Below are positions 4,251 to 58,351 of a stretch of DNA of 64,000 nt, piece by piece (the first letter of the stretch is position 1; each line of letters starts with the position of its first letter). The notes below the pieces were generated by a model. It did not search any database. It was given only the letters and a program-made list of their open reading frames with translations, and was not told where the DNA came from. Source of the DNA: Desulfurivibrio sp. (lineage in GTDB: Bacteria > Desulfobacterota > Desulfobulbia > Desulfobulbales > SURF-16); NCBI GenBank assembly GCA_003605035.1, contig QZKJ01000007.1:41560-105559 (forward strand), written 5' to 3'. The translations under genes and the position numbers were made by a program.

Positions 4251-4291
4251 CTCTGCCAAGAAGGACGGCGATGTTATTTTATTGCAACGGC

Positions 4292-4600: not shown

Positions 4601-4605
4601 GATGG

Positions 4606-5004
4606 CTAGCTTTTTTTCAGTTCCGCAAAACGGCGGAGCATGGAATGTTCCAGGCCGGCAAGGGCGGTCCTGGCTTTTTTCTCAAGGTCATCGATCTGGT
4701 GAAACTCCGTGGCAACGATAGTGACCAGCGAGCTGAAATCCTTCCCCTGTATGCAGTTGCGGGTGGAGATGTTCACCCTGCCGCCCTGTTTGACCAGTGA
4801 GCCATGATCAACGGCAAAGTAGCGGGCGCCGCCGCCGTGATCTTCCACGGTGAGGACCCCCGGCACGAGAACAGCAATATAGTCGACATGGCGGGGCAGC
4901 AGGGTGAAATACCCTTCAAGCCCTTCGGCAATGATCTTGCTGACCGTGTCAGCCTGCCAGTAAATTCTGGTGGGCAGATAGATGCCGAGCGAAATCGAGT
5001 TCAT
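4606..5004 (-). CDS. atpC: ATPase epsilon subunit
   Basis: 132 aa. The N-terminal beta-sandwich pattern is epsilon-like (ILTVEDHGGGARYFAVDHGSLVKQGGRVNISTR), and the gene follows atpD. Confidence 0.9.
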   Translation of the reverse strand: MNSISLGIYLPTRIYWQADTVSKIIAEGLEGYFTLLPRHVDYIAVLVPGVLTVEDHGGGARYFAVDHGSLVKQGGRVNISTRNCIQGKDFSSLVTIVATEFHQIDDLEKKARTALAGLEHSMLRRFAELKKS

Positions 5005-5010
5005 ATCCGC

Positions 5011-6550
<1,540 letters not shown>

Positions 6551-8982: not shown

Positions 8983-8990
8983 GTTGTATC

Positions 8991-12445: not shown

Positions 12446-12489
12446 ATGCTTTCAGTCCGGTAGGCTGCGGATGGCAGGTTTATCGGCGG

Positions 12490-14532: not shown

Positions 14533-14556
14533 ACTTGCTTTTCCTCCTGATATTGA

Positions 14557-14605
14557 GGGGCCGTTACCTTAGCTTGCCCGCATTCCGTAAGGCCCCTTAT
14601 GCCGT
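14557..14605. repeat. Dispersed hairpin repeat, copy B (between cheW and the MCP gene)
   Basis: The sequence is GGGGCCGTTACC...CCGTAAGGCCCCTTATGCCGT. It forms a 10-bp stem with one bulge (14557-14567 pairing with 14587-14596). Confidence 0.75.
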
Positions 14606-14717
14606 TCACAGTGTTGGGATGTTCAGTTATTTTTACAAGGTCTTTTTCCGCAGTGCTCAGCACGCTTTTCATGGCTTTTGCCGGGATTTCCGGATGGCAG
14701 CCTCTCTAAAGGCCTGT

Positions 14718-15236
14718 TCAGACGACTTCTTCATTGACAATCAGCCGGGTATCGGCCAGCAGTTTTGCTCCATCGAGGATCACCAGGCGCTCCCTGCTTA
14801 CCCCTTTCAGGAAATCGGCCCTGATGCCGGTAAGGGTGGGAAGCGTGGGCATGATCTCTTTTTTGGCAATGGTATCGATGCCGATAATCGCATCGGCCAG
14901 GATGCCGAATTCCATATTCTTTGACTGCAGGATAATCACACTGGTGCTGTCGGTTAATTCCTGGCTTTGCATCTCAAAAAAGATGCGCAGATCGATCACG
15001 GAAACGATCTGGCCCCGGACATTGATGATGCCCTGCACAAAGGACGGGACGCCCGGTATCGGGGTGAGGCCCCGCAGAGGGTAGACTTCCAGGATAAGAT
15101 CAAGCTCCAGCCCGTAGATTTCCCCTCCCAGCTGGAATTCGACAATTTTCAGGACATCGTTTTCCCGCTCCATGTCCTGCAACGGTCTGGCCAGTTCCCT
15201 GGCCCGTTTCCGGAGGATGTCAAGTTGATCGTTCAT
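14718..15236 (-). CDS. cheW: CheW-like coupling protein
   Basis: 172 aa single CheW domain (GEIYGLELDLILEV...PGVPSFVQGIINVRGQIVSVIDL). Confidence 0.9.
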   Translation of the reverse strand: MNDQLDILRKRARELARPLQDMERENDVLKIVEFQLGGEIYGLELDLILEVYPLRGLTPIPGVPSFVQGIINVRGQIVSVIDLRIFFEMQSQELTDSTSVIILQSKNMEFGILADAIIGIDTIAKKEIMPTLPTLTGIRADFLKGVSRERLVILDGAKLLADTRLIVNEEVV

Positions 15237-15241
15237 GTCCG

Positions 15242-16807: not shown

Positions 16808-17261
16808 GATCTGCAGCGACTTTTTCCATACAGATGAATTCCTGATCGTTAAAAAAACGGGCCATATCAACAATAATCACGCTGCTGTTATTGAACCTCC
16901 CCACCCCCTCAATATAGCGCTGCAGACCTGGATGGATCTCTTCCGCCTCATGGAATTTCAGATGATCAAACTGGACGATGCCTTCCACGCCGTTCACGAT
17001 AAAACTGACCAGCGCCCCGGCCTTGAAGAGGATGATCCGGTCATCGACTTCCATGGCGCGTTCCGGCAGGTGCCATTTTTTTCTGATATTGACCACCGGC
17101 AGGACGCGGCCCTCCACATTCAACAGGCCGATAATGGTTTCAGGGCCTTCGGGCAGAGGGATAACGGCCGCGGCGCGAATAATCTTTTCCACGTGCGAAA
17201 CAGCAACTCCATACAGCTGGTCGTCAATCTTGAAAATGCAATAACAACTGATCTGATCCAT
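16800..17261 (-). CDS. cheW: CheW-like coupling protein (first gene of the operon)
   Basis: 153 aa CheW domain (DDQLYGVAVSHVEKI...PETIIGLLNVEGRVLPVVNI). Confidence 0.88.
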   Translation of the reverse strand: MDQISCYCIFKIDDQLYGVAVSHVEKIIRAAAVIPLPEGPETIIGLLNVEGRVLPVVNIRKKWHLPERAMEVDDRIILFKAGALVSFIVNGVEGIVQFDHLKFHEAEEIHPGLQRYIEGVGRFNNSSVIIVDMARFFNDQEFICMEKVAADHE

Positions 17262-19266: not shown

Positions 19267-20367
19267 ATGATGAGAAAAGATACATTGAAAACATCCGTGT
19301 TTGCCGTTGCTTCCAGCGGTCTGCTGTTCCTGTCGGTTGCATCATTTGATGCAGCGGCTGAACCGCCGATCGAACCTGATGAAGAGGAGTCAAATTTTCT
19401 TTCCGTACCGGCCATTTTCGCCGAAGGCTATGGCTTGTCCGGCTTGCAGATCGTTGAAGAGCATGACACCGGTTTGCCGGAAGGTTCTGACCCCGACACC
19501 TGGGGGCTACCATATTGCTCTGAGGGGGGGGCGACGCAGTACTATCTTCAGGGGAGCTATCTTGAGGAGGGCGACCCCACCAGCTGGCAAGCACAATGGG
19601 CTGTCGCCGCTGCCTCAGAGAAGGTGTCCGTGACAGTGGACTGGTCCAAGGAGGTTATTGAGAAAGAATGGAACGACAAGTCAGTCATTCCGGTAAGTGT
19701 TACTTTGTATACGGGGAACGAGGGGAACTTGAAGGGATATGAAATGAAAGATTTTATCCTGGATACTGATACTGCTGAATGTGTTTTTGACCCGGAAGTA
19801 GAAGAGGACAGTGATGACGTAAAATGGGGAACTACCCCCGAAGCTTATGGCGATTATTACGACAGGGCGACTGTTTTTACCGTGGGGGCCAAGCTTACCA
19901 TTCAGAAATATGAAGAGAAAGTAAACGGGGATGGAACAGTTGAACTCGTCCCATTTGTTGATGAGGACGGTGAGCCAGTAATCGTTCTCGGTGACGATTA
20001 TGGCGAGGTCACCGCGAGCTTTGATAATCTGGGAAAACCTGAATGGCTCGCACCTGCCATTGATGTTGAGGGCAGGATAACCTATCTGTTCAACTGGAAT
20101 CTGGCGGCAAAGCAGTTTGGTCCTAATGTGGATAGATCAGGGTGGTACCGTCTGACTTTCAGTATCGTTAATCCGGTAACATACACACTCTCTAATGGAT
20201 ATAGTGTCGAAGATAGAGGTACTTACGAAAATATCAGTACTAATGTAATCCTTGCCGGGGTTGATGCATCAGATACCGGTGAAGACGTTGTATATGAACC
20301 GACGGTTGATATTACCAATCAGTCGACATCAGTGGATATTCATATTAGCAATGTCATGGGGGAATAA
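19267..20367 (+). CDS. Secreted acidic protein of unknown function
   Basis: 366 aa. AAGGAGA lies 7-8 nt upstream of the ATG. The signal peptide is MMRKDTLKTSVFAVASSGLLFLSVASFDAAA. The protein is very D/E-rich, and I recognise no family. Confidence 0.75.
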   Translation: MMRKDTLKTSVFAVASSGLLFLSVASFDAAAEPPIEPDEEESNFLSVPAIFAEGYGLSGLQIVEEHDTGLPEGSDPDTWGLPYCSEGGATQYYLQGSYLEEGDPTSWQAQWAVAAASEKVSVTVDWSKEVIEKEWNDKSVIPVSVTLYTGNEGNLKGYEMKDFILDTDTAECVFDPEVEEDSDDVKWGTTPEAYGDYYDRATVFTVGAKLTIQKYEEKVNGDGTVELVPFVDEDGEPVIVLGDDYGEVTASFDNLGKPEWLAPAIDVEGRITYLFNWNLAAKQFGPNVDRSGWYRLTFSIVNPVTYTLSNGYSVEDRGTYENISTNVILAGVDASDTGEDVVYEPTVDITNQSTSVDIHISNVMGE

Positions 20368-20470
20368 AAGGCACTGAATGACAGATGTTGTAAGTTTTTT
20401 AATTCTTAAATGCCTTGCTGGTTCAGCCGGCGGCAAAATGAGCAGGATAATGATGAAAATGAGGAGCAAA

Positions 20471-22426
20471 ATGATGAAAAGGTCAAGAGAGACTGCTTCA
20501 CAATTATCAGGGTTTGTTGCGTTTGCTTTAGCTGGCGCCTTAGCGCTGCCGGCGATGTCTTTTGCCGGAGGCGGCTTCATGGGGGGACAGGGAGACATTG
20601 TCGACGAGGTGTCCTCTGCGACCGTCGTCGAAGAGGTTTCCACGGATGCAACGGAGGTGCCCGTTGACGTAGAGACCGATGGCCCTCTGAATGACAATAT
20701 GTCGAGTCAGGGCAAGCTGTTTGGCGATCTTTACAAGATTCTCAGGTACCAAGGCAGTGAAGAATCCAAGCTGATACCTCAAGTCGATGGGAATGGTGAT
20801 CCGGTTCTGGACCTCATTAGCGGAAAACAGTTACTCGTGGCGAGTGAAGAGCCGCCGGTGGGCGGGGAGCCGGTGCCCTCCGCCGGCTACGGCTATTATG
20901 TCAAGGAGGTATTGGTTGGGGATGTAGTTACCTATGAGGTGGCAACCTCACCCTATCCGAGCCAGTGTGTGCAACCGGTGGCCGATTACAGCAAGTGGGG
21001 GGATATCTGGGGGGATCCGACAAAACAGAATGCCCTGCCGCTCATCATCACGTACGATGCCACATGGGGAAGATCCGAATGCGCTGTCGGTGAGTTGACA
21101 GCGGTCGCGGCCAACTCTGATGGCACACTCAAATTAACCGTCGATGAATGGTTCATCGAGCCGGACGGGTCATGGGATGGCGTTATATACTGTGATGGCA
21201 TCAAGTGGACCGACCTGATCGACGAGGTGAGTTTCGGTCGTCTCAACCTGAGCCGGTCGCCGGAAGCGGTTCTGCAGGCAGCCTTTGACGAGGCTATCAA
21301 CTCGATCAACAATGCCGACAAGGTAGAGATCGACGCTGCAGGACGCCTGTTGCTGACCACGGCCATCTATGAGGAATTTGACACGGGTCTGACCTGTGAG
21401 GCTAAACTGATCGAGACAGTGACAAAAGCCATCGATTCTCCCCTGGAGAACCTGGCCTTATATGTCAAGCTGATGCAGGACGGCCATCTGGTAACCCCTG
21501 GAGATGAGCGGGCGCCGATCGACCGGTCCCTTAACGGCGGCATTCCTTTGTGGAAGATGCTGGAACTGGAGGACGGCCCATCCACTGCTCTGAGGCCCAC
21601 CATCAACATCACCAAGATGAGAGAGTGGGGGCTCAATGACCTGGTGGATGTCACTGAGGTCGACTACTACACCTACTATCAATGTTATGGCGTCGACGGC
21701 GTTGATGAAGATGTCGAGGAGGATGAAGTCGAATGCCTCTGCGTGAACCAAGATGGCGATTCCGTAACATGTCCTGATGTTGTCAGTCGAGAACTTAAGG
21801 CTGTCGCCGTCGCTTGTCCGGTGGACAAAGTGTGCGAGGGGCCTTTCTCCGGCATCACGACTGATGACGGAACGATCACACCTGTGGGTGTGCACTTTGG
21901 TTTTGCCGCCTCGTTTCTGGCCGCGGCGGCGGACAAAACCGGAGATATCGGGGTGGACATGGTGGTGTACCTGAATTCGATCCTCGGCATCAACAAGGTC
22001 ATCGGCTACAGCGCCTATGATCTGGATGGCAACCCGGCTGCCACCGCTATCAACTACGCAGAAAACCCGGTCTACTTTGACTATGGCGTGATATCGGGGG
22101 AATCCGACTATGCGCGGGATGAAGTATTCAAAGATCCAATTCGGGGACAAGTGAGGACGCAGGGAGGCGTGGAGGACCATCCTCGTCCTGAATATGACGG
22201 CCAGGTTACGGTGCTTAAGTCAACCAGTGATGGCGTCTGGGCTGAAACCCCGTGTCCGATTATCGGCGATGACAGTGTCTCCTTTGACAATATCGGATTG
22301 GGCGATAACGGGTTTCCAAACGGAACTGTGGCCGCCAATGATATCTTGGGGTTCTCCCAGATGGCGGACGACGATCTGAGCGTGATTAAATTCATTCATA
22401 CCTACCAGATACCAGGGTTGAAATAA
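20471..22426 (+). CDS. Secreted acidic, Cys-rich protein of unknown function
   Basis: About 651 aa from ATG 20471. GAGGAG lies 4 nt upstream of that ATG, and in-frame alternative starts exist back to 20378. The signal peptide is MMKRSRETASQLSGFVAFALAGALALPAMSFA. The mature part contains 12 Cys. I recognise no family. Confidence 0.75.
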   Translation: MMKRSRETASQLSGFVAFALAGALALPAMSFAGGGFMGGQGDIVDEVSSATVVEEVSTDATEVPVDVETDGPLNDNMSSQGKLFGDLYKILRYQGSEESKLIPQVDGNGDPVLDLISGKQLLVASEEPPVGGEPVPSAGYGYYVKEVLVGDVVTYEVATSPYPSQCVQPVADYSKWGDIWGDPTKQNALPLIITYDATWGRSECAVGELTAVAANSDGTLKLTVDEWFIEPDGSWDGVIYCDGIKWTDLIDEVSFGRLNLSRSPEAVLQAAFDEAINSINNADKVEIDAAGRLLLTTAIYEEFDTGLTCEAKLIETVTKAIDSPLENLALYVKLMQDGHLVTPGDERAPIDRSLNGGIPLWKMLELEDGPSTALRPTINITKMREWGLNDLVDVTEVDYYTYYQCYGVDGVDEDVEEDEVECLCVNQDGDSVTCPDVVSRELKAVAVACPVDKVCEGPFSGITTDDGTITPVGVHFGFAASFLAAAADKTGDIGVDMVVYLNSILGINKVIGYSAYDLDGNPAATAINYAENPVYFDYGVISGESDYARDEVFKDPIRGQVRTQGGVEDHPRPEYDGQVTVLKSTSDGVWAETPCPIIGDDSVSFDNIGLGDNGFPNGTVAANDILGFSQMADDDLSVIKFIHTYQIPGLK

Positions 22427-40300: not shown

Positions 40301-40435
40301 ATTTGCCGATTGTTTTCACAAAAATAATGTAGTAATGACAGTTGTCTCCAGCCAGTACCACGGGAGACGTGCGTCCAAAATTCGCCTTAATTGCCATATA
40401 TCATTAATAAAATTGTGATGAGAAGGAGGAAAGTG

Positions 40436-42199
40436 ATGGTTCTTGATCCCACCAAGCACGCAGATTGGGAAATTGCTGAAGATGCTGAAAAAAATATGAA
40501 GACGGTTTACGAACTTGCGGAACAGCTCGGGCTGGAAAAGGAAGAGCTGCTGCCCCATGGCCATTATGTGGCCAAGCTCGATTACCGCAAGATTCTTGAC
40601 CGGTTAAAGGACAGGCCGGACGGAAAATATATTGACGTAACCGCCATCACCCCAACCCCGCTGGGTGAGGGAAAGAGCACCTGCGCCATGGGACTGGTGC
40701 AGGGCCTCGGCAAAAGAAACAAAAGCGTAATCGGCGCCATCCGCCAGCCATCCGGCGGTCCCACCATGAACATCAAGGGCAGCGCCGCCGGCGGCGGTCT
40801 GGCCCAGTGCATCCCGCTGACCCCGTTTTCCCTGGGTCTCACCGGGGATATCAATGCCATCATGAACGCCCACAATCTCGGCATGGTGGCCCTCACCTCC
40901 CGCATGCAGCATGAGGCCAACTACACCGACGAGCAGCTGGCCAAGAGGAATCTCAAAAGGCTGGATATTCATCCCAAGAAGGTGGAATTCGGCTGGATCA
41001 TCGATTTCTGCGCCCAGGCCCTGCGCAACATCACCATTGGCCAGGGCGGCAAAATGGATGGCTATACCATGCAGTCCAAGTTCGCCATTGCCGTAAGCTC
41101 CGAGATTATGGCCATTCTGGCCATCGCCACTGACCTCAAAGACATGCGCGAGAGAATCGGCAAAATCGTCGTGGCCTATGACCGGCAGGACCGGCCGGTC
41201 ACCACCGCTGACCTGGAGGTGGACGGCGCCATGACCGCCTGGATGGTGGAGGCCCTGAATCCCAATATGCTGCAGACTATCGAAGGCCAGCCGGTCATCG
41301 TCCATGCCGGCCCCTTTGCCAACATCGCCATCGGCCAGTCCTCGGTCATCGCTGACCGGGTGGCCTTGAAAATCGCCGATTACAACGTGACTGAAAGCGG
41401 CTTCGGGGCGGATATCGGTTTTGAGAAATTCTGGAATCTCAAATGCCGCTACAGCAAGCTCAAACCCCACTGCGCGGTGGTGGTCGCCACCATCCGGGCC
41501 CTCAAATGCCATGGCGGTGCCCCGATCCCGGTGCCCGGCAAGCCCATGCCCGAAGAGTACAAGAAAGCAAATGTCGGCTGGGTCGAGGCGGGCTGCCAGA
41601 ATCTCATCCATCATATCCAGACCGTGAAAAAGGCCGGCATCAATCCGGTGGTCTGCCTCAATGCCTTCTACACCGATACCGAAGAGGAGATCAAGGCGGT
41701 GCGCCGGCTCGGCGAGGCCGCCGGCGCCAGGGTCGCCCTGTCGCGCCATTGGCAGTATGGCGGGGATGGGGCGGTTGAATTCGCCGATGCGGTCATCGAC
41801 GCCTGCGAGGAGAAAAATGACTTCAAGTTCCTCTATGACCTGGACACCCCGCTGGCCAAACGCATTGAGCTGATCGCCAAAGAGGTCTATGGCGCCGACG
41901 GCGTCAGCTACACCCCGGAGGCCCAGGAGAAGCTGAAACGGATGGAGTCCGATCCGGAGATGAAGGAAATGGGCACCTGCATGGTGAAAACCCATCTCTC
42001 CCTGTCCCATGAACCGAGACTGAAAGGGGTGCCCAGGGGCTGGACCCTGCCGATCCGCGATATCCTCACCTACAAGGGGGCCGGTTTTGTCGTTCCCGTG
42101 GCCGGCGCCATCAGCCTGATGCCTGGCACGGCCTCAGACCCCGCTTACCGGCGCATTGATGTGGATGTGGAAACCGGCAAGGTGAAAGGCGTATTCTAA
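40436..42199 (+). CDS. fhs: Formate-tetrahydrofolate ligase
   Basis: The protein begins [19 protein letters not shown]... and carries [12 protein letters not shown] place the start at ATG 40436, preceded by AAGGAGGA. The track start at 40391 adds 15 unlikely residues. Confidence 0.96.
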
Positions 42200-42225
42200 T
42201 AAAAAATTTTCCCCAGTAAATCCAG

Positions 42226-42271
42226 GGCGATACCGACGGGAGTTCACGCTCCCCCGGTATCGCCTTTTTTA
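42226..42271 (+). terminator. Rho-independent terminator after fhs
   Basis: The stem pairs GGCGATACCG with CGGTATCGCC, with an inner GGGAG/CTCCC pairing. TTTTTT follows at 42265-42270. Confidence 0.9.
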
Positions 42272-42280
42272 TTAGTTTCT

Positions 42281-42296
42281 ATAGGGCCGCTATGTG
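42281..42296. repeat. Short, possibly collapsed copy of the same hairpin repeat
   Basis: ATAGGGCCGCTATGTG combines the left-arm start and the right-arm end of copy C. It lies just after the fhs terminator. Confidence 0.4.
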
Positions 42297-42369
42297 AAAA
42301 AGTTGTTAAGCAAACCATAATACGCTAATATAAAAAATAGTCTCGACCAACCTCCACCACATTTGATAT

Positions 42370-44589
42370 ATGGCGCTTCCAGCACAGAAAATACCAGACA
42401 AGAAAGCTGGCCTCCGGACCACCGTCAAGGACCAGTCCGGCGCCGGCAAAACCAAGATCGGCGAGGTGCTCAGGAAGGAGGGGCATATCCTCAATACCCA
42501 GCTTGAGGAAGCCCTGGCCATCCAGAAGAAATCCGGCCAGCGGCTGGGCAGTATTCTGATCAAGCTCGGCTATATAGAGGACTCCACCATCCTCAATGTG
42601 TTAAGCCGGCTCCATAATTTCCCGCCTGTTGACATCAAGAAGGAACCGCCTAACCCGGAAATCTTCAAATCCGTCCCCTTTGAAGTCGTCAAAAAATATT
42701 GCGCCCTTCCTCTGCGGGTGACCGGCAAGACCCTGCAGGTCACCATGGCCGAACCCACGGACACCAACGCCGTGGAGGAACTCCAGTCTGAAGTGAAGAT
42801 GGTGCTGTCCGTCTGTGTCTCCACGGAAAAGGACATTTTTGAAGCCTATAAGAAATATTACAAGATCAGCGAGGAGGAATTCCGCCAGCTGACCGGCGCT
42901 GATGAGAAAATCGAGGAAGAAGAGGAAGATGTCACCAGTATCGATGACTTCGGCACCCTGGCCTCGGAGGCTGCCGAGGACATGGCCATCGAGGATAGCA
43001 GCGGCAGAGAGGCGGAAGAGTTTTCCGCCTCTGATGCGCCGATCATCAAGCTGGTGAACGGCATCCTCATCAAGGCGGTCAAGGACGGGGTCAGCGACAT
43101 CCATATCGAGCCGTACGAGAAGTCGCTGCAGGTCCGTTACCGTCTGGACGGCGCCCTCTACAAGTCGATGAATCTGCCGCTCAGTATCAAAAACGCCTTG
43201 AATTCCAGGGTGAAAATCCTGTCAAACCTTGATATCACCGAACGCCGTGTTCCCCAGGACGGCAGAATCAAGATGCGCATCGGCAGAAACAAGGTGGTTG
43301 ATTTCCGGGTCTCCACCCTGCCCACCCTTTTCGGGGAAAGTATTGTTCTGCGTATTCTCGATAAGGATTCACTCAACGTCGATCTGACCAAACTCGGCTT
43401 TGAGCCGCAGGTCTTCGCCACCCTGAAGCGCTGTCTGAACCGCCCCCAGGGGCTGCTGCTGGTTACCGGCCCCACCGGCAGCGGCAAGACGGTTACCCTC
43501 TATTCCGCCCTGAACTCGCTCAACAGTGAGGACACCAAGATTCTGACCGCCGAGGATCCGGTGGAGTTCAACTTCAAGGGGATCAACCAGGTCAATGTCC
43601 ATCAGGAGGTGGGCATGACCTTTGCCGCGGCCCTCAAGGCCTTTCTGCGGCAGGACCCGGATATCATCATGGTCGGTGAGATCCGTGACATGGAAACCGC
43701 CGAGATTGCCATCAAGGCGGCCATGACCGGCCATCTCGTCTTCTCCACCCTGCATACCAATGACTGCGCCGCCACCATCGGCCGTCTGGTTGATATCGGC
43801 ATTCCCCCCTATATGCTGGCCTCGGCCATCACCATGGTGCAGTCCCAGCGGCTGGGCCGCCGTCTGTGCCCGGCCTGCAAGGTGGAGATACCCCCGCCGG
43901 ACGCCAAGGAACTGCTTGGCATCGGCTTCCGGGAAGAACAGATCAAGGGACTGGCCAAGCTCTATGCCCCCAAGGGCTGCCCGGTCTGCCGCGGCGGCGG
44001 CTACAAGGGCAGGGTGGGTTTTTTTGAGCTGATGGAGGTTACCGATGAGGTGGCCAAGGCCATCGGCGCCGAGGTGCCTGAGGATCAGCTGCGCAAGGTG
44101 GCCATCCAGGAAGGCATGATTCCGCTGCGCAATGCCGCCATCCTCAAGGCGATCCAGGGCGTCACCAGTATCGACGAGGTGTTGAAGAAGACCGTCATTA
44201 CCGAAGAAAGTCTGCCGGCCTATCTGGTCAATCCGGATATTGAAAGATACGAGGACGGCGATGTCATTATCCGCCAGGGCAACTCCGACATTGATTTCTT
44301 CCAGTTGATTCAGGGGGCGCTGATGGTGGTCAAGGATGGCAAGAAAATTGCCGAAATCACCGAGCCCAACGAATATTTCGGTGAGATGTCGGCAATCTCC
44401 GGGGTGGTCCGTTCCGCCTCCATCCTCTCCAAGGGCAGATCCACCATCAAGCGTTTCCCCGGCGATAAAATCATGGAGATCATTGAAAAACATCCGCAGG
44501 TTGCCAAACATTTCTTCAAGACCCTGGTGACCCGTCTCGGTCAGGCCAATGACATCATCGTCAAGCTGGCCGAGAGTCGTGCTAGGTAG
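42370..44589 (+). CDS. PilB/GspE/MshE-family secretion ATPase with an N-terminal MshEN-type domain and a C-terminal cyclic-nucleotide-binding domain
   Basis: 739 aa. The ATPase core has Walker A (GPTGSGKT), Walker B (DPDIIMVGEIRD), a His box (TGHLVFSTLHTND) and a tetra-Cys motif (CPACK...CPVCRGGG). The N-terminus carries a tandem 24-aa MshEN motif (aa 29-81). The C-terminal ~130 aa form a cNMP-binding fold (YFGEMSAISGVVRSASI). Confidence 0.9.
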   Translation: MALPAQKIPDKKAGLRTTVKDQSGAGKTKIGEVLRKEGHILNTQLEEALAIQKKSGQRLGSILIKLGYIEDSTILNVLSRLHNFPPVDIKKEPPNPEIFKSVPFEVVKKYCALPLRVTGKTLQVTMAEPTDTNAVEELQSEVKMVLSVCVSTEKDIFEAYKKYYKISEEEFRQLTGADEKIEEEEEDVTSIDDFGTLASEAAEDMAIEDSSGREAEEFSASDAPIIKLVNGILIKAVKDGVSDIHIEPYEKSLQVRYRLDGALYKSMNLPLSIKNALNSRVKILSNLDITERRVPQDGRIKMRIGRNKVVDFRVSTLPTLFGESIVLRILDKDSLNVDLTKLGFEPQVFATLKRCLNRPQGLLLVTGPTGSGKTVTLYSALNSLNSEDTKILTAEDPVEFNFKGINQVNVHQEVGMTFAAALKAFLRQDPDIIMVGEIRDMETAEIAIKAAMTGHLVFSTLHTNDCAATIGRLVDIGIPPYMLASAITMVQSQRLGRRLCPACKVEIPPPDAKELLGIGFREEQIKGLAKLYAPKGCPVCRGGGYKGRVGFFELMEVTDEVAKAIGAEVPEDQLRKVAIQEGMIPLRNAAILKAIQGVTSIDEVLKKTVITEESLPAYLVNPDIERYEDGDVIIRQGNSDIDFFQLIQGALMVVKDGKKIAEITEPNEYFGEMSAISGVVRSASILSKGRSTIKRFPGDKIMEIIEKHPQVAKHFFKTLVTRLGQANDIIVKLAESRAR

Positions 44590-44671
44590 TATCCACTAGG
44601 TACTATTACCTAACTATTTGGAATCTAAAACTTTCTTTTGCGGTATTCTGGTTAAAATCACCATAATTCCC

Positions 44672-44700
44672 TTGCAAAAGTGGATTGAGTTCACTAAGAT
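44672..44700 (+). promoter_or_regulatory. Candidate sigma70-type promoter ahead of folD and the Wood-Ljungdahl genes
   Basis: The sequence reads TTGCAA-N17-TAAGAT and lies in a 215-nt AT-rich spacer, about 100 nt upstream of the folD ATG. The call rests on sequence pattern only. Confidence 0.3.
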
Positions 44701-44804
44701 ATTTAACTCAGTTTAGCTATCTTTCTGCTTTCCCCAAGCAAGTCACGGCAAACACAAGACTTTTTCCATATTCATTTTTTTCATTTGTTTCTTTCCATTA
44801 AGGA

Positions 44805-45698
44805 GTGATAATGACAGCAAAAATTATCAGCGGGACCGAGACCGCTAAAGCCATTCGCGAGGAACTCAAAACCGAAATCGCCGAGTTGAAGGAAAAGCAC
44901 AATGTCGTGCCCGGTCTGGTAACTATTCTTGTCGGTGAGGACCCTGCCTCCCAGTCCTACGTGAGCGCTAAAAATAAAACCGCCCACGCCCTGGGCATCC
45001 ATTCGGAGCAGGTGACTCTTGCCGCGGATAGTAGTGAACAGGAACTTCTTAATCTGATTGACAAATATAATAATGATGAGAAAATTCACGGCATTCTGGT
45101 GCAGCTCCCCCTGCCGAAACATATCAATGAAGCGAAAGTCCTCTATGCCATCAACCCGGACAAGGATGTGGACGGTTTTCATCCGGTCAACGTCGGCAAG
45201 ATGGTGCTGGGCGAACAGTGCTATCTTCCCTGCACACCCCACGGCATCCTTGAACTTTTGACCCGCAGCGGTGTCAATACTAGTGGTGCCGAGGTGGTGG
45301 TCATCGGCCGCAGCAATATTGTCGGCAAACCGATCAGCAACCTCATGCTGCAGAAACGGGACGCCGGCAACGCCACGGTTACCATCTGTCATACCCGCAC
45401 CAGGGACATGGCGGCCCATACCAGACGCGCCGACATCATCATCGCCGCGGTCGGCGTGCCGAAAATGGTCACCGCCGACATGGTCAAGGACGGGGTGGTG
45501 ATTATTGATGTCGGGGTTAACCGCATCGGCAAGACCGCGGACGGCAAGGCGATTCTTGCCGGTGATGTGGATTTTGACGCGGTCAAGGAAAAGGCTGCCG
45601 CCATTACTCCCGTCCCGGGCGGCGTTGGTCCCATGACCATAACCATGTTGATGAAAAATACCGTGCAGGCGGCCAGACTGGCTGCCGGCCTGATATAA
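44805..45698 (+). CDS. folD: Bifunctional methylene-THF dehydrogenase / methenyl-THF cyclohydrolase
   Basis: 297 aa (PGLVTILVGEDPASQSYV, GILVQLPLP, VVVIGRSNIVGKP, TPVPGGVGPMT). Confidence 0.96.
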   Translation: MIMTAKIISGTETAKAIREELKTEIAELKEKHNVVPGLVTILVGEDPASQSYVSAKNKTAHALGIHSEQVTLAADSSEQELLNLIDKYNNDEKIHGILVQLPLPKHINEAKVLYAINPDKDVDGFHPVNVGKMVLGEQCYLPCTPHGILELLTRSGVNTSGAEVVVIGRSNIVGKPISNLMLQKRDAGNATVTICHTRTRDMAAHTRRADIIIAAVGVPKMVTADMVKDGVVIIDVGVNRIGKTADGKAILAGDVDFDAVKEKAAAITPVPGGVGPMTITMLMKNTVQAARLAAGLI

Positions 45699-47785: not shown

Positions 47786-50482
47786 ATGAAATCGGGAAGT
47801 CGTTTAGAAAGGATTCTGACCTCCGGGGGCTTTGCCGTGACCGGAGAACTGGGACCGCCTAAAAGCGGGGATCCCGAGGTCGTCAGGAAGAAGGCCGCCA
47901 TACTGCGCGGCCATGTGGACGCGGTCAACATCACGGACTGCCAGACTGCCATTGTCCGCATGTCAAGCATCGCCGCCGGACTCATCGCCCAGCAGGAGGG
48001 CGTGGAGCCGGTCATCCAGATGACCTGCCGTGACCGCAACCGCATCGGCATGCAGAGTGATATCTTAGGCGCCGCGGCCCTTGGTCTGAAAAATCTTCTC
48101 TGTCTGACCGGCGATCACCAGAAATTCGGCAACCACCCCGGCTCCAAGGGGGTATTTGATATGGATTCCATTCAGCTGCTCGGCATGGTCCGCGGCATGC
48201 GGGATGAGAAGAAGTTTCAATGCGGCGAGGCGATCAAATCCGCCGAGCCGCGGCTCTTTCTCGGCTGCGCCGCCAATCCCTTTGCCAATCCCTTTGAGTT
48301 CCGCGCCCCGCGGCTGGCCAAAAAGGTGGCGAGCGGCGCCGACTTCGTGCAAACCCAGATTATCTATAATGTTGAAAAATTCGCCAGGTTCATGGAAATG
48401 GCCCGCGACCTGGGGTTGCCCGAGAAGGTTTATATCCTCGCCGGCGTTACCCCGCCCAAATCGCTGGGCATGGCCCGCTACATGAAAAGTTCGGTGCCCG
48501 GCATGGATGTGACCGACGAGGTGATCAACCGCATGAAGGATGCCGCTGACAAGCAGGAAGAGGGCATCAATATCTGCGTGGATATCATCAATCGGGTCCG
48601 GGAAATCAAAGGGGTTTCCGGCGTGCATATCATGGCCATCGAGTGGGAGGAGGCGGTACCTGAGATCGTCAAGCGCGCCAAGCTCGAACCGCGGCCGGTA
48701 TTTGCCGAGGATGAGCGGCAGCCGGTGCAGGCAAAAGAGGTCATTGAAGTTGTTGCGCCTGCGGTGCAGCCGGCCGCGGCGCCCCCTGCGCTTGACACGG
48801 ACAAGCTGCTGGCTGAGGCCAGAGCAGAGGCGGAAAAAATCATTGCCGGCGCCCGTGCTGAAGTTGAAAAAATGCGAGCCGCAGCTGTTCTGCAAACAAC
48901 AGCCGGCTCAGCCCCAGAATATGAAGATGCAGGAGAGCATGAGATGAATGAAAAAGAACGTCAGATGGCGTTGCAGTCTGTGCAGATGGGTCTGAACGCC
49001 CTGAAAAAGGCCTTTAACCTGAGCGATGAGCAGTTTGAGGCCCTGGCTAGCTTTGCCAGCGCCGAGGCAGTGCTGAAACGCCAGCCGCCTGAAACCGCAA
49101 GCGCTGGATCTGTGATTGCACCAGTTGCCGCCGAGATGGTCAAACCCGCCCCGGATAAGGCGGCAGAAGAGGCCAACAAGGCCGCTGAAGCCAGGGACGC
49201 GGCAGAGGCAAAAAAGGCCGCAGAGGCAAAAGCTGCCGAAGAGGCCAGGAAAGCTGCTGAGGGAAAAGCTGCGGACGAGGCCAGGAAGGCCGCTGCGGCC
49301 AAGGCTGCTGAAGAAGCCAGGAAGGCTGCCGAAGCCAAAGCCGCTGAAGAGGCCCAAAAGGTAGCTGAAGCCAAAAAAACCGCTGATGCCAAAGCTGCGG
49401 AAGAGGCCAAGGCAGCAGAAGAGACCAAAAAGGCTGCTGAGGCAAAGGTAGCAGTCGCGCCTAAGGCCGTTGCCCCTGCCGGCGATCTGGCGGTAGCCGC
49501 GCTGGCCGTTGAAAAAACGCCTTTTGCCGAGCGCGCCAAAAAGATCCCGGCCGCTTCCTATCAGGTCAAATATACGGGACAGATTAAAGAGACGCTGCTC
49601 GGCAGCGGCGATAAGGCAATCAAAGTCGGTGGTGAATCCTCCATGCCCTTCCATCTTTTTGAAGGGGCCATGCCCAATAAGCCGCTGATCGCCATGGACG
49701 TGCTGGATGTGCAGCCCGAGGAGTGGCCGGACTCGCTGGCCCGCCATTTCAGCGGGGTGCTGGATAATCCGCTGGCCTGGGCCAGAAAATGCGTTGATGA
49801 CTACCAGGCGGAAGCACTCTGCCTCTCCCTGGTCAGCACCGATCCCAACGGCATGAACAGGAGCGCCGCGGAGGCGGCCAAGGTCGCCGCCGAGGTGATC
49901 AATAATATCAATGTGCCGATTATTATCTGGGGCTGCGGCAACGCCGACAAGGATACCGAGACGCTGCGGGAAATCACTTCGCTCACCGGCGACAAAAAGG
50001 TGTGCCTGGCGCCCCTTTCCGACAGCAATTACCGCTCCCTGGGCGCCACCGCCATGGCCTTCCAGTATCCCATGGTCGCTGCTTCGCCCATTGATGTCAA
50101 TCTCGCCAAACAGCTCAATATCCTGCTCGAGAACCTGGGGGTTTCCCTGAACTCCGTCATGATGGATCCGTCAGTCGGCGCTCTCGGCTACGGCATCGAG
50201 TATACCTATTCCGTCATGGAGCGCATCAGGCTGGCCGCGCTTACCCAGCAGGATGAAAAACTGCAGGTGCCGATCATCTGCAATCTGGGCCGGGAGGTCT
50301 GGAAGGCCAAGGAGTGTCGGCTTCCCTCTGATGCCGTGCTGGGAGATCAGGAGAGAAGAGGGGTGATGATGGAGGCGATCACTGCCACCTGCATGCTGCT
50401 GTCAGGCGGTGAGGTGCTGATCATGCGGCATCCCAAGGCCATCAATCTCACCAAGTCTCTGATCAACAGCCTGATAAGCTAA
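47786..50482 (+). CDS. Fusion protein: acetogen-type methylene-THF reductase (MetF) domain, a ~280-aa linker with Ala/Lys/Glu repeats, and a corrinoid Fe-S protein small subunit (AcsD/CdhD) domain
   Basis: One uninterrupted 898-codon ORF. Residues 1 to ~300 are MetF-like (VTGELGPPK, NITDCQTAIVRMSS, QMTCRDRNR, LCLTGDH). Residues ~590-898 are AcsD-like (VGGESSMPFHLFEG, IIWGCGNADKD, DPSVGALGYGIEYTYS). Confidence 0.9.
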   Translation: MKSGSRLERILTSGGFAVTGELGPPKSGDPEVVRKKAAILRGHVDAVNITDCQTAIVRMSSIAAGLIAQQEGVEPVIQMTCRDRNRIGMQSDILGAAALGLKNLLCLTGDHQKFGNHPGSKGVFDMDSIQLLGMVRGMRDEKKFQCGEAIKSAEPRLFLGCAANPFANPFEFRAPRLAKKVASGADFVQTQIIYNVEKFARFMEMARDLGLPEKVYILAGVTPPKSLGMARYMKSSVPGMDVTDEVINRMKDAADKQEEGINICVDIINRVREIKGVSGVHIMAIEWEEAVPEIVKRAKLEPRPVFAEDERQPVQAKEVIEVVAPAVQPAAAPPALDTDKLLAEARAEAEKIIAGARAEVEKMRAAAVLQTTAGSAPEYEDAGEHEMNEKERQMALQSVQMGLNALKKAFNLSDEQFEALASFASAEAVLKRQPPETASAGSVIAPVAAEMVKPAPDKAAEEANKAAEARDAAEAKKAAEAKAAEEARKAAEGKAADEARKAAAAKAAEEARKAAEAKAAEEAQKVAEAKKTADAKAAEEAKAAEETKKAAEAKVAVAPKAVAPAGDLAVAALAVEKTPFAERAKKIPAASYQVKYTGQIKETLLGSGDKAIKVGGESSMPFHLFEGAMPNKPLIAMDVLDVQPEEWPDSLARHFSGVLDNPLAWARKCVDDYQAEALCLSLVSTDPNGMNRSAAEAAKVAAEVINNINVPIIIWGCGNADKDTETLREITSLTGDKKVCLAPLSDSNYRSLGATAMAFQYPMVAASPIDVNLAKQLNILLENLGVSLNSVMMDPSVGALGYGIEYTYSVMERIRLAALTQQDEKLQVPIICNLGREVWKAKECRLPSDAVLGDQERRGVMMEAITATCMLLSGGEVLIMRHPKAINLTKSLINSLIS
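49154..49450 (+). repeat. Coding low-complexity repeat (KAAEEA/RKAAEAKAAEE)n within the MetF-AcsD linker
   Basis: The translation reads DKAAEEANKAAEARDAAEAKKAAEAKAAEEARKAAEGKAADEARKAAAAKAAEEARKAAEAKAAEEAQKVAEAKK.... Repetition is also visible at the nucleotide level. Confidence 0.8.
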
Positions 50483-54235: not shown

Positions 54236-57200
54236 ATGTCGACAATACATCTTGAAATAAACGGCATGGAGCTTGTCGCCGAGCCCGGCCTGACCATTCT
54301 CGAAGTGGCCAGGCGCTCGGAGATCGACATCCCCTCTCTCTGCTCGGTGAACGGCAAAAACAGCCAGGCGCCGTGCGGCCTCTGTGTCGTTGAGATAGAA
54401 GGCATGGGCGAGCCTGTCCGTGCCTGTGCTACCCCGGCCGAAGACGGCATGAAGATCACCACCTCTTCCCCCGCTCTGGTGAAGATCCGCCAGGACAGGC
54501 TGGCCAGGATTTCCGCCAGCCATTTCGGCGACTGCAAGGCCCCCTGCAATCTGACCTGTCCCGGCCAGATCAATGTGCAGGGTTATATCGCCCATATCAG
54601 CAAGGGTGAATATGAAGAGGCCATGCGGCTCATCATGGAGCGCAATCCCTTTCCCTTTTCCGTCGGACGGGTATGCCCCCGTTTCTGTGAAACCCGCTGC
54701 CGCAGAATTCTGGTGGATGACCCGGTTTCCATCAACCATCTGAAACGCTTTGTGGCAGACTGGTGCATGACCAACCATATCGATCTGAAAATTCCCCGGG
54801 AAAAGGCCACCGGCAAACGGGTGGCCGTGATCGGCGGCGGACCCGCAGGGCTCACCGGCGCCTATTATCTGGCCCGCAAGGGGCATGATGTCACCATTTT
54901 TGAGGCCAATCCCAAGCTGGGCGGCATGCTGCGCTACGGCATCCCCACCTATAAGATTGACCGCAACGTGCTCGATTACGAGACCAACATGATCCTGCGC
55001 ATGGGCATTTCGGTGAAGCTGAGCCAGCGCTGGGGGGTGGATTTCACCCTGCAGGATCTGAAGGATCAGGGTTATCATGCCATCCTGCTGGCCACCGGCA
55101 CCGGGCTGGACCGGCCGCTGGAAATTCCCGGCGGCAGACTGCCCAAGGTGCTGACCGCCACCAAGGTCCTGCGCGATGCCGCGGAAGGCAAACGCATCAA
55201 GTACGGACTGCGCGCCGCGGTCATCGGCGGCAACAATATTGCCATGGAGGTGGCCCGTACCCTGCTGCGCCAGGGGGTGGACCAGGTGACGGTGGTCTAT
55301 CCCCGCTCCCAGGAAGAGATGGTGGCCAACCAGCGCGTCATCCGCGAGGCGGAGAGGGAAGGGGTGCAGTTTCTGCTCATGGCCTCGCCGGTGCAGATCT
55401 GCGAGGTCGACAACGGCGGCCTCAGCGTTGAACTGGTGAGGATGAGACTGGGTGAGCCTGATGCCCGCGGCATCAGGCAGCCGGAGGCTATCCCCGGCAC
55501 CACCAATACCATCATTGTCGATACCCTGGTCACCTCCCTTGGCCAGATGGCCTGCGTGGACGGCTTCAAGGGCGGGGACCTGGAGGAGCAGATCGAGATC
55601 GCTCCCAACAATACCATCAATGCCTCACCGCGGGATTTCACCACCTCGGTGCAGGGCGTCTATGCGGCCGGCGATGCGGTGAACGGCCCCCGCACGGTCA
55701 TCCAGGCCGTGGTCGGCGCCCGCCGGGCCGCGGAAAATATCCATGCCTACATGATGGATGCTCCCAAGGAGGCGGGGGAGAACCGCTTTAATTTCACCCG
55801 CGGCAAAACCTTTGACCAGGTCCATCTGAGCAACTTTGACGGCGTCAATATCAAGCTGCGGGAAAAGATGCCCACCAGGCCTCCCCAGACGGCGGTGCAG
55901 GATTTTGACGTGATCAAGCTCGGCTTCAATGAGCAGATGGCCCGCAAGGAGGCGGAACGGTGTCTCTCTTGCGGCTGCAACGCCTTTGAAAATTGTGATC
56001 TCAAAAGGCTCAACATTGATTTCAATGTCAACATCAATAAAACAGGCATGGGTGAGAAACCGCTCTATAAAAAGGACGATTCCCATCCGGTGCTCAAGGT
56101 GGACCTCAACAAGTGCATCTTCTGCCAGCGCTGCATGCATGCCTGCGAGTATGGCGCGGTCACGGTCACGGCCGGCCATATTGATGCCAATAATGTCGCC
56201 TCACGCCTGCAGCTCGCCTTTAATGACAAATGCGTCAACTGCGGCAAGTGCGCGGAAAACTGCTCCACCGGGGCCCTGACCAAAAAGGTTGCCCTGGTGC
56301 CGGTGATCAGCGAGGCGGTGCGTGATGTGCGCACCACCTGTCCTTACTGCGGGGCCGGCTGTCAGCTTACCCTGCGGGTCAAGGGCAATACCATCATGGA
56401 GGTGACGGCCGATCCTGATCTGGCCCCGAATTACGGCGCCCTGTGTGTCAAGGGCCGTTTCGCCTATGACTTCGTCCGGGACAAGGAACGTCTGACCAGG
56501 CCGCTGGTCAGACGGCACGGCCACCTGGTGGAGACCAGCTGGGATGATGCCCTGGAGATCGTCGCCCGTAATTTCTTTGATCTGAAGGCCATGTACGGGC
56601 CTGATTCCATTGCTGGATTTTCCTGCGCCAGGGCGACCAACGAAGAAAATTATCTGATGCAGAAATTCATGCGGACGGTGATCGGCACCAACAACATCGA
56701 ACATTGTGCAAGGCTTTGACACGCTCCCACGGTGGCCAGTCTGGCCCTCACGTTTGGCAGCGGCGCAATGACCAACTCCATTGCCGATGCCTCCAGGACC
56801 GATCTGTTTCTCATGATCGGCAGCAACCCTGACACCAGTCATCCCACCATCGGCCTGCGCATTCACCAGGCGGTGGACCGGGGCGCGAAACTGATCGTCG
56901 TCGATCCCCGCCGGACACAGCTGGCCGAGCGGGCCGATCTCTGGCTGCGCATCAAGCCGGGCACCGATGTGGCCCTGCTCAACTCCATGATGCAGGTGAT
57001 CATCGAGGAAGATCTGCTGGATAAGCGCTTCGTGGCGGAGCGCACCGAGGATTTCGATGAACTGGAGCGGCTGGTGAAAAAATACCGGCCCTTCATGGTG
57101 GAAAAAATCACCGGCATCCCGGCCGAGCAGATCCGCCAGGCGGCCCGCATGTATGCGGCCCAGGGCCGGCACGCCATTTACCATGGCATGGGCATCACCC

Positions 57201-58351
57201 ATTACGTCACCGGCACCGACCGGGTGAAGAGCATTGCCAACCTCGCCATGCTGTGCGGCAAGGTCGGGGTGGAAGGCGGCGGCTGCAACCCGCTGCGCGG
57301 CCAGAACAATGTGCAGGGCGCCTGCGACATGGGGGCCCTGTTCAATACCCTGCCCGGCTATGCCAGCCTGAGCAACGAAGACCTGTTCGACCGCTATGAA
57401 CGGATGTGGAAGGTCAAGCTGCCCAGGCGTCCCGGCAAACCGGCCACCGAGGTGTGGGACAACATCCTGAAGGGGGAAATTCATTCCCTGTACATCTTCG
57501 GCGAGGACCCGGCAGTGGCGGACGCCAACATCTCCCACGTGCAGGCTGCCCTGGAAAAATGTGATTTCGTGGTGGTGCAGGACATCTTCATGACCAAAAC
57601 CGCCCAGATGGCTGATGTGGTGCTGCCCGCCGCCTGTTTTGCTGAAAAGGACGGCACCTTCACCAGCACCGAGCGCCGGGTGCAGCGGGTGCGCAAGGCA
57701 GTCGACCCGCCCGGGGAAGCCCGGCCGGACTGGAAGATCTTCGGCGATCTCTCCAGGAAAATGGGCTACGAGATGAACTACCGCTCGCCCAGGGAGGTTT
57801 TCGAAGAGGTTTGCACCATTCTGCCCCAGTATGCCGGCTTGAGCTATGAACGGCTGGAGAAAGTGGGCCTGCAGTGGCCGGTGCCCACGGCGGATCATCC
57901 CGGCACCCCGGTCCTGCACACCAGGGAGTTCACCCGCGGCAGGGGCCTTTTTATTCCGGAGGATTATATCCCGCCGGTTGAGGTGGCCGATCAGGAGTAT
58001 CCCCTGCAGTTCACCACCGGACGTGATCTGTCCCGCTACAACTTCAGCAGCATGACCGGCAAGACCCGGGAGATCAATGCCATCAGTCCCGAGTGCTTTG
58101 CCGAGTTCCACCCCGAGGACGCGAAACTTTTCGGCATTGAGGACAAAGATTCGGTACGCTTGACCTCGCGCCGCGGCTCAGTGGTGCTGCGGGCCAAGGT
58201 GACGGACCGCACCCAGCAGGGTACGGTATTTGCCACCTACAACCATGTTGAGGCGCTGGTCAATCTGCTGACCCTGGACGCCCTTGACCGCCTGTCCCGG
58301 ACGCCGGAGTACAAGCTGTGCGCCATCAAGGTGGAAGTGGTTGATGCATAA
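54236..58351 (+). CDS. fdhA: Selenocysteine-containing formate dehydrogenase catalytic subunit fused to N-terminal 2Fe-2S ferredoxin and GltD-like NAD(P)H/FAD modules (UGA-Sec at 56717-56719)
   Basis: Track ORFs 54236..56719 and 56732..58351 are in the same frame and separated only by a TGA. The junction reads [30 protein letters not shown], the FDH active-site motif. The MopB 4Fe-4S motif is CPYCGAGC. The GltD-like part carries VIGGGPAGLTGAYYL. Confidence 0.9.
56734..56746 (+). other. SECIS-like hairpin downstream of the fdhA UGA
   Basis: GGCCA-GUC-UGGCC begins 15 nt after the UGA. This is positionally equivalent to the apical stem-loop of the E. coli fdhF SECIS. Confidence 0.6.

Follow-up and report, generated by a model that had tools for sequence, protein, structure and literature searches.

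A PilB-type ATPase with a C-terminal cyclic-nucleotide-binding domain in Desulfobulbia

The stretch of DNA analysed here (64,000 nucleotides of Desulfurivibrio sp., GenBank assembly GCA_003605035.1, contig QZKJ01000007.1, positions 41,560 to 105,559 of the forward strand; referred to as the window) encodes a PilB-type ATPase, i.e., a candidate extension motor of type IVa pili (T4aP), to which a cyclic-nucleotide-binding (CNB) domain is C-terminally fused. The gene, named pilB in the following, lies between fhs (40391-42199) and folD (44812-45698) in the order uvrC, nifU, nifS, thyX, fhs, pilB, folD, cooS, a metF-acsD fusion, acsB, acsC, formate dehydrogenase and an hdrA-like gene; elsewhere in the window, ATP synthase genes, a chemosensory cluster and housekeeping genes are found. 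A preceding reading of the letters alone (the sequence-only reading) had described the open reading frame (ORF) between fhs and folD as an orphan ATPase gated by two second messengers, with an N-terminal MshEN motif pair for cyclic di-GMP (c-di-GMP) and a C-terminal domain for cyclic mononucleotides (cNMP). Searches with profile hidden Markov models (HMM) recover MshEN, T2SSE and cNMP_binding in this ORF, all above the curated cut-offs. The gene and the parts of its product are as follows:

42370..44589 (+): pilB-cNMP gene, 739 amino acids plus stop codon
42424..42447 (+): invariant N-terminal peptide VKDQSGAG, residues 19-26 (homologue alignment)
42454..42612 (+): MshEN_N, two 24-residue c-di-GMP-type motifs, residues 29-52 and 58-81 (NF053729)
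42613..42879 (+): MshEN_C / GSPII N1D subdomain, residues 82-170 (Pfam PF05157)
43024..44193 (+): ATPase core, N2D plus C-terminal ATPase domain (CTD), residues 219-608 (PF00437, motif positions, Foldseek)
44197..44238 (+): junction between ATPase CTD and CNB domain, ITEESLPAYLVNPD, residues 610-623 (family alignment)
44233..44586 (+): C-terminal CNB domain, residues 622-739 (PF00027, matches in the Protein Data Bank (PDB), structure prediction with AlphaFold2 (AF2))
44377-44418 (+): phosphate-binding cassette FGEMSAISGVVRSA, residues 670-683 (motif search)

A full-length PilB with a cyclic-nucleotide-binding tail

On sequence grounds, the protein is a full-length orthologue of PilB in which no catalytic motif is missing. 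The NCBIfam equivalog model for PilB, TIGR02538, is matched at 759 bits (cut-off 675.65) over residues 29-609 (HMM positions 1-563 of 564), while the GspE model TIGR02533 is not passed (569.6 bits versus a cut-off of 630.25) and the scores for the TfpB, ComGA and PilT models of NCBIfam stay below the respective cut-offs. T2SSE (Pfam PF00437) is recognized at residues 220-605 with an E-value of 6.6e-134. The ATPase core is intact as originally read, with Walker A (367-374), Asp box (391-399), Walker B (429-440), His box (453-464) and the tetra-Cys Zn site (C500, C503, C537, C540) located where they had first been placed, and these motifs are invariant in the fused and unfused homologues compared. 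Closest among the solved structures by sequence are PilB of Myxococcus xanthus (E 2e-158) and then that of Geobacter, aligned over residues 27-610; using the AF2 model, Foldseek matches the core to Geobacter PilB (5TSH and 5ZFR; E ~1e-40, 53% identity). The Foldseek search of the PDB returned solely PilB, GspE and PilT cores, and no structure combining such an ATPase with a CNB domain. Up to residue 610, the protein is, hence, an ordinary deltaproteobacterial-type PilB, and the CNB fusion is its new element. With the PilB equivalog passed, the GspE model failed and T4aP PilBs as the nearest structures, the earlier description as an orphan motor of unknown target machine is not supported.

The last ~130 amino acids had been assigned to a CAP-type fold with the cassette named above, in agreement with both Pfam and AF2. 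The cNMP_binding domain (PF00027) is found at residues 625-708 with 47.6 bits against a gathering cut-off of 27.5; the best PDB sequence matches are the CNB domains of Plasmodium PKG, of PKA RI and of HCN channels, with E-values of 4e-19 to 1e-9 for PKG and PKA. AF2 predicts a beta-barrel, the helix of the phosphate-binding cassette and two C-terminal helices (B and C) with a predicted local distance difference test score (pLDDT) of 75-88. Sequence matches and model, thus, both identify the tail as a canonical CNB fold whose phosphate-binding cassette is intact. The F-G-E...R-S-A pattern of the cassette, which fits either cAMP or cGMP, is retained in 117 of 120 homologues, and the cNMP-contacting Gly, Glu, Arg and Ser/Thr-Ala are kept also in the distant fused clusters P0121, P0126 and P0148; the cassettes of two other distant fused clusters are degraded (FCE...HTA in P0127, FGL...RST in P0276). 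In the AF2 model, the CNB domain lacks an N-terminal helical subdomain of its own and follows the last CTD helix directly via ITEESLPAYLVNPD. This junction overlaps the most conserved protein segment of the family (residues 609-621, 92% mean identity to the window protein), and its LPAYL core is also retained in P0121 and P0148.

At the N-terminus, the Pfam MshEN domain (PF05157) spans residues 83-168 (E 1.3e-13; AF2 pLDDT ~78-86), preceded at residues 29-80 by the NCBIfam c-di-GMP_motif model NF053729 with 56.8 to 62.6 bits against a cut-off of 38. By this model, the window segment (62.6) ranks with M. xanthus PilB (62.3) and the GSPII-B segment of Thermus PilF (63.2) and comes near Geobacter PilB (68.1); MshE scores 86.1. 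The initial claim of a matching motif pair stands in part: the spacer between the two stretches is exactly 5 residues and the model is above its cut-off, but neither the published MshEN pattern nor the authors' relaxed pattern is matched literally by the two 24-residue stretches. Motif 1 agrees at 7 of the 11 specified positions, deviating at K1, I2, R7 and H11, and motif 2 at 8 of the 11, deviating at Y11, I17 and L24 (for Q). In the numbering of Vibrio cholerae MshE, obtained by alignment to 5HTL, these substitutions comprise R9K, L10I, V15R, I19H and Q61L, together with G40S in ~45% of the family; the loss of c-di-GMP binding by XpsE has been ascribed to changes at positions that include I19 and Q61. 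Since the HMM score equals those of M. xanthus PilB and PilF GSPII-B, yet important positions are substituted, this domain is a plausible candidate for c-di-GMP binding.

The fusion is a family trait. In a homologue set of at least 120 protein clusters (72-100% identity to the window protein), MshEN, T2SSE and cNMP_binding are all present in 120 of 120 members (Pfam); the member with 100% identity is a database entry from Desulfurivibrio sp. Scanning one genome per GTDB species with an alignment of five tail sequences only, at least 512 stretches encoding a relative of the tail were found, of which the lower-ranked ones may include unrelated CNB proteins; in 78 of the best 80 species loci, the tail is continuous with a PilB body. 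Most of these 80 bear the labels Desulfobulbia, Desulfurivibrionaceae or Desulfobulbaceae or generic labels of metagenome-assembled genomes; isolates among them are D. dismutans, Hydrosulfovibrio ferrireducens, Desulfurivibrio spp. and Desulfobulbus sp. Tol-SR; Thiovibrio frasassiensis is a further isolate with the fused gene. An exhaustive search of 50%-identity representatives confines the fusion to the few clusters P0121, P0122/P0276, P0126, P0127 and P0148, the last being a GspE-N1E-type protein with a CNB fusion, and the nearest unfused protein among these representatives is a PilB of Nitrospinota with 55% identity.

When measured against close relatives with unsaturated dS, dN/dS amounts to 0.015-0.09 for junction plus CNB, 0.03-0.08 for the ATPase core and 0.04-0.06 for MshEN. 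Given the spread across many species, the retained cassette and the low dN/dS, the fusion is evidently old, widespread, functional and subject to strong purifying selection; its origin as an artefact of assembly or of a frameshift was rejected, the fusion being present in isolate genomes and in many independent assemblies. As far as sequence can tell, the core of the sequence-only reading, namely that an intact motor ATPase carries two candidate modules for second messengers, is borne out, and both modules are conserved under purifying selection.

The start of the gene is well placed, because the ATG at 42370 is the first start codon 3' of an in-frame TGA (42364-42366) and precedes the family-invariant peptide VKDQSGAG. 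Residues K20 to G26 of this peptide are invariant in 90 of 90 aligned homologues; the region lies ahead of the MshEN motifs, is predicted to be disordered (AF2 pLDDT < 50) and is missing from the unfused PilBs compared. Its role could be that of a short linear motif for interaction or modification. As had been noted, there is no Shine-Dalgarno sequence in the inspected sequence before the ATG (ACCTCCACCACATTTGATAT), in contrast to folD with its AAGGAG. Just 5' of the pilB ATG (window 42350-42369), CCTCCACC is the complement of a Shine-Dalgarno sequence and not such a sequence itself; it is kept in the three nearest relatives (L008, L009, L011) and not in L007, L010 and L014. Both GC content and GC content at third codon positions (GC3) of pilB match the neighbouring genes, which argues against recent transfer, and horizontal acquisition was rejected on these grounds.

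Gene neighbourhood, transcription and candidate partner genes

No pilus or type II secretion system (T2SS) genes occur anywhere in the 64-kb window, as the sequence-only reading had stated for pilC, pilM-Q and gsp partners, and an association of the gene with T4aP genes is, therefore, not seen at this locus. What surrounds the fused gene is a long-conserved order. The series uvrC-nifU-nifS-thyX-fhs-pilB-folD-cooS-metF/acsD-acsB-acsC is repeated in both Thiovibrio genomes, the proteins being 75% identical, and is found again from uvrC to acsC in several metagenomic contigs. Among the 56 species loci with enough flank, fhs lies directly upstream of the fused pilB in 44 and folD or cooS downstream in 46, and the order of neighbours is kept despite saturated synonymous divergence. 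About 80% of these loci keep the neighbours of pilB, and in none of ~80 related loci does the gene adjoin pilT, pilC or pilM.

Variations on this theme exist. In Desulfurivibrio (L035, L044, L061, L074), 3-6 kb of other genes are placed between fhs and pilB, with which the locus tags of D. alkaliphilus agree (PMC5016858), and more distant fused homologues (66-68% identity) are situated among genes for PPDK, ABC-F, UDP-glucose dehydrogenase, an epimerase and cysS. At locus L079, a second PilB-like ATPase with an N-terminal GAF domain (195-2522) stands in tandem upstream of the cNMP-fused pilB (2523-4775), and at L063, a C-terminal fragment of a second PilB-like ATPase (4-423, at the contig edge) lies upstream of the fused gene (873-3053). 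These tandems suggest paired motors with different small-molecule sensors.

Transcription of pilB appears to be separate from that of its neighbours. Both intergenic regions are long and AT-rich compared with the 57% GC of the whole window, the gap between fhs and pilB measuring 170 bp at 41% GC. They contain the following elements:

42224..42266 (+): intrinsic terminator of fhs, GC-rich hairpin followed by a T-run (RNA folding)
42267..42369 (+): AT-rich intergenic region upstream of pilB with sigma-70-like hexamers (promoter scan)
44590..44811 (+): AT-rich intergenic region before folD, 222 bp, 33% GC (GC content)

The fhs hairpin was overlooked by a simple consensus terminator scan and established by RNA folding: its predicted free energy is -30.4 kcal/mol (z = -5.97; 0 of 200 shuffles as stable), and it is conserved in the nearest relatives. 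In the adjoining region, which may be the pilB promoter, the scan reports GTGAAA-16-CATAAT at 42294-42321, and the upstream block GTGAAAAAGTTGTTA...ATAATA..CTAATATAAAAAATA is conserved in L008, L009 and L011. The consensus scan found no terminator-like site 3' of pilB, and no riboswitch or other RNA family of Rfam is matched in the two intergenic regions or elsewhere in the window. Because of the fhs terminator, the conserved upstream block and the native GC3, pilB looks like its own transcription unit and is probably not part of a carbon-fixation operon.

More is known about the relative D. dismutans AMeS2, whose gene inventory and proteome have been published (PMC12142623, Table S1); the statements made here hold for the part of this table that was covered. 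The orthologue P0N66_RS08765 (complement 179431..181659) is 72% identical to the window protein, maps exactly onto locus L035 and is the only protein named PilB in that part. It was detected in both growth conditions at ranks 933 and 807 by relative intensity-based absolute quantification (riBAQ), with a log2 fold change of -0.17 (p = 0.31), while FolD changed by +1.34 and Fhs, at ranks 48 and 29, by +0.88 (PMC12142623). By riBAQ, the fused PilB is ~10 to 30 times scarcer than Fhs or FolD, and its level shows no co-variation with theirs. The fhs terminator, the separate AT-rich gaps and this lack of co-variation speak against co-transcription or co-regulation of pilB with fhs, folD and acs.

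The same inventory offers candidate partners (PMC12142623). GspE (RS02145) is encoded beside GspF and GspD, and the ATPase RS10835 within a cluster of secretin, ATPase, platform (RS10840), sigma-54 regulator and prepilin genes; a further GspE/PulE-family ATPase, RS12065, lies beside PilY1 and minor pilins. A platform gene of the T2SS-F family, RS08935, stands alone beside eno, ~33 kb from pilB and with no adjacent ATPase, which answers the proposed search for a platform lacking its own motor. Genes for pilM, pilN, pilO, a hypothetical protein and a secretin form a separate cluster (RS12250-12225), and PilT (RS07425) as well as a PilT/PilU-family ATPase (RS00395) are both solitary (PMC12142623). 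Since platform, pilMNO-secretin cluster and PilT lie apart in D. dismutans, the T4aP genes are scattered in this lineage; and since RS10835 and GspE each have an adjacent platform, the orphan platform and the pilMNO-secretin cluster are the natural partners of the fused PilB. The prepilin-type proteins RS12095 and RS10850 of this organism are among its most abundant proteins (riBAQ ranks 3 and 6, and 12 and 45, respectively; PMC12142623). Concerning second messengers, D. dismutans encodes a class I adenylate cyclase, a class III cyclase and at least 12 diguanylate cyclases (PMC12142623), and two GGDEF proteins are encoded in the window, one as the output of the chemosensory cluster.

A proposed ligand-responsive extension motor in the light of known systems

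We consider it probable that the gene encodes the T4aP extension ATPase PilB of Desulfobulbia, in a lineage-specific form with a C-terminal CNB fusion. The hexameric motor would drive pilin polymerisation through PilC, using parts encoded elsewhere, namely the orphan platform PilC, PilMNOPQ and PilT. The CNB tail would bind cAMP or cGMP at its cassette, and the ligand might reposition the C-terminal helices and the junction and, thereby, change ATP turnover or the packing of the hexamer. If the tail works like the modules of PKA, PKG and Epac, its ligand-free state would be inhibitory, and binding would most likely relieve auto-inhibition and license extension. A probable further input, by c-di-GMP, would come from MshEN, for which MshE, M. 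xanthus PilB and PilF offer parallels, with two messengers converging on one motor. The place of pilB between fhs and folD would, according to this reading, reflect inherited synteny and not co-transcription.

A number of points weigh against this reading. Both the ligand (cAMP, cGMP or another) and the regulatory sign are guesses. In ~80 loci, pilC, pilT and pilM never adjoin the fused gene, and none of them is found within 10 kb. Two more PilB-like ATPases exist in D. dismutans, RS10835 in a cluster of its own and RS12065 by PilY1, for which reason the assignment of the fused protein to the T4aP machine is tentative. The proteome, limited to the part of the table covered, is that of a relative with a 72%-identical protein and not of the window organism, and electron microscopy of D. 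dismutans cells showed no pili (PMC12142623). MshEN departs from its consensus at V15R, I19H and Q61L. Finally, AF2 does not place the tail on the ATPase ring with confidence, the linker 611-621 having a pLDDT of ~33 and the overall predicted template modelling score (pTM) being 0.38.

Among the other explanations, the one we regard as least improbable, while still unlikely, is that of a paralogous motor serving another type IV filament or T2SS-like system, or of a second, conditional extension motor; examples would be the export of abundant e-pilin-like prepilins or cytochrome filaments, or a TfpB-like partner of another PilB. Four T2SSE-family ATPases face three platform genes in the part of the D. 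dismutans table covered, and the two-motor machine of Acinetobacter baylyi, with TfpB and PilB as extension ATPases, provides a precedent (PMC11656802). Within the family, the GAF-fused PilB-like gene in tandem with the cNMP-fused one (L079, and as a fragment in L063) suggests sets of differently regulated motors. However, it is the fused protein alone that reaches the PilB equivalog threshold, whereas the cut-offs for GspE and TfpB are not reached, and RS10835 and GspE have platforms of their own, leaving the orphan platform and the pilMNO-secretin cluster. The GspE/PulE-family ATPase RS12065, which adjoins PilY1 and minor pilins, leaves room for a two-motor arrangement. Still less credence, and the least of all explanations weighed, is given to a tail that acts as a ligand-independent or non-cNMP module, i.e., in docking, oligomerisation or binding of some other small molecule. 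CNB folds are generally known to be versatile, and some CRP/FNR-type domains bind heme, 2-oxoglutarate or c-di-GMP; the tail has no N-terminal helix of its own, and the cassettes of P0127 and P0276 are degraded. Against this stand the contact residues retained in 117 of 120 close homologues as well as in P0121, P0126 and P0148, the cNMP-binding domains of PKG, PKA and HCN as best matches, and the cyclases encoded in the relative D. dismutans.

The conserved position of the gene invites another explanation, according to which a cNMP/c-di-GMP-gated ATPase is kept in an iron-sulfur (Fe-S) and one-carbon (C1) gene block through functional coupling to carbon fixation, either by signalling carbon or energy status to pilus or nanowire export or as a signalling ATPase that influences Wood-Ljungdahl expression. 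We judge this to be improbable. The neighbours are retained in 44 and 46 of the 56 loci, respectively, despite saturated synonymous divergence and, uvrC aside, they are functionally coherent (nifU/nifS for Fe-S; thyX, fhs and folD for folate/C1; cooS, acs and fdh), pilB being the odd one out; moreover, there is a precedent for PilB as a signalling protein (PMC5544727), and M. xanthus PilB is reported to moonlight in exopolysaccharide regulation. Yet a strong terminator separates fhs from pilB, long AT-rich gaps lie on both sides, the fused PilB of D. dismutans is scarcer than Fhs and FolD and does not co-vary with them, Desulfurivibrio tolerates 3 to 6 kb of insertion between fhs and pilB, and distant fused homologues sit among unrelated genes. 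Because uvrC belongs to the same conserved block, low rearrangement alone may explain the gene order. A motor that links carbon and energy status, read as cAMP or cGMP, to the export or extension of the very abundant pilin filaments is doubtful to the same degree; if true, extracellular electron exchange or attachment would be coordinated with autotrophic growth in electroactive sulfur bacteria. Of the earlier claim that the gene sits inside a carbon-fixation cluster, the position itself is strikingly conserved, but its functional meaning is weak in view of the terminator and the missing co-variation, and the conserved place within the Fe-S/C1 block is a curiosity.

Returning to the reading as the lineage's own PilB, comparison with characterized systems delineates what is shared and what is new. 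With the PilBs of Geobacter metallireducens, Geobacter sulfurreducens and M. xanthus (5TSH, 5ZFR, 6OLJ, 3JC8), the fused protein shares N1D (MshEN), N2D and CTD over residues 27-610. Unlike these, it has an extra 130-residue CNB domain and a 28-residue N-terminal extension with VKDQSGAG. Its gene is also detached from pilT and pilC, whereas the three genes pilB, pilT and pilC lie side by side in Geobacter and Myxococcus. As in MshE of V. cholerae (5HTL; PMC5013675), two 24-residue motifs with a 5-residue spacer lie at the N-terminus of a T2SSE ATPase; the fused PilB, however, scores lower (62.6 versus 86.1 bits) and has substituted motif positions. MshEN fusions to ATPase, glycosyltransferase and other domains have been catalogued with no mention of cNMP domains (PMC5013675). 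PKA R subunit, PKG, Epac and HCN/MloK1 have the same fold and phosphate-binding cassette, and the ligand there usually relieves auto-inhibition, whereas the output domain here is a hexameric secretion ATPase of the PilT/VirB11 class and the CNB domain is without its own N-terminal helical subdomain.

Regulation of T4P output by a cyclic mononucleotide is also known from the Pil-Chp-CyaB-Vfr system of Pseudomonas (PMC11656802), but cAMP acts there on a separate transcription factor, Vfr, and on gene expression, while here the sensor is located covalently on the motor, which implies post-translational control. Likewise, FimX, PilZ, SgmX/MglA, CpiA and TfpB decide when or where the extension motor works, but as separate proteins, in contrast to the arrangement in cis described here. 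A 2024 review of PilB regulation lists c-di-GMP via MshEN and the separate proteins FimX, PilZ, SgmX and CpiA; cAMP appears there solely as a transcriptional signal via Vfr, and a CNB-fused PilB is not mentioned (PMC11656802). A full-text search, with subscription-only papers outside its coverage, found no description of a cNMP-fused PilB or T2SSE ATPase, and the literature on pili in cable bacteria, Thiovibrio and CB1MN added nothing. Apparently, the CNB-fused PilB is undescribed in the literature, although databases show the fused architecture, with PilB as its unqualified name.

What turns the PilB motor on and off is under active study. A CNB domain in cis that is under selection in at least 78, and perhaps several hundred, species of Desulfobulbia would provide the motor with a direct cyclic-mononucleotide input and, together with MshEN, would make a single motor the convergence point of two messengers. 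The lineage is of interest in itself, since it includes Desulfurivibrio and other members of the Desulfobulbales, the order to which the cable bacteria belong. Pilin genes of Desulfurivibrio are reported to give conductive pili, and dense biofilms on anodes have been described. Furthermore, mechanistic work could make use of the fused protein as a PilB under ligand control.

Further features of the window

Approximately 25 kb from the MshEN-bearing PilB, a chemosensory cluster is encoded on the reverse strand (6715-17261). It comprises CheR, CheW, a methyl-accepting chemotaxis protein (dCache/HAMP), CheA-REC, CheB and a final REC-PAS-GGDEF-EAL protein, and is Wsp-like with c-di-GMP as output. 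The ATP synthase genes, also on the reverse strand (536-6483), are arranged as beta, three small ORFs, a, c, b and alpha, an order that resembles N-type (Na+) ATPase operons more than the standard F-type operon. Two adjacent ORFs on the forward strand (19267-20367, 366 amino acids; 20378-22426, 682 amino acids) have no Pfam match at E <= 1e-5.

In the block downstream of pilB, FolD (44812-45698) shows 38-76% identity among the relatives L001-L086, compared to 65-97% for Fhs, CooS and AcsB, and was overlooked in several loci at the tblastn thresholds applied. The metF-acsD fusion is an ORF of 898 amino acids (47786-50482, forward strand), in which methylenetetrahydrofolate reductase is joined to the AcsD/CdhD corrinoid-protein subunit; it is conserved in relatives. 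The alpha subunit of formate dehydrogenase (54236-58351, forward strand) constitutes one frame with an in-frame TGA at 56717-56719, a candidate selenocysteine codon, and is N-terminally fused to 2Fe-2S and GltD-like NAD(P)H/FAD domains; the corresponding gene of a relative is called as a single product of 1371 amino acids.

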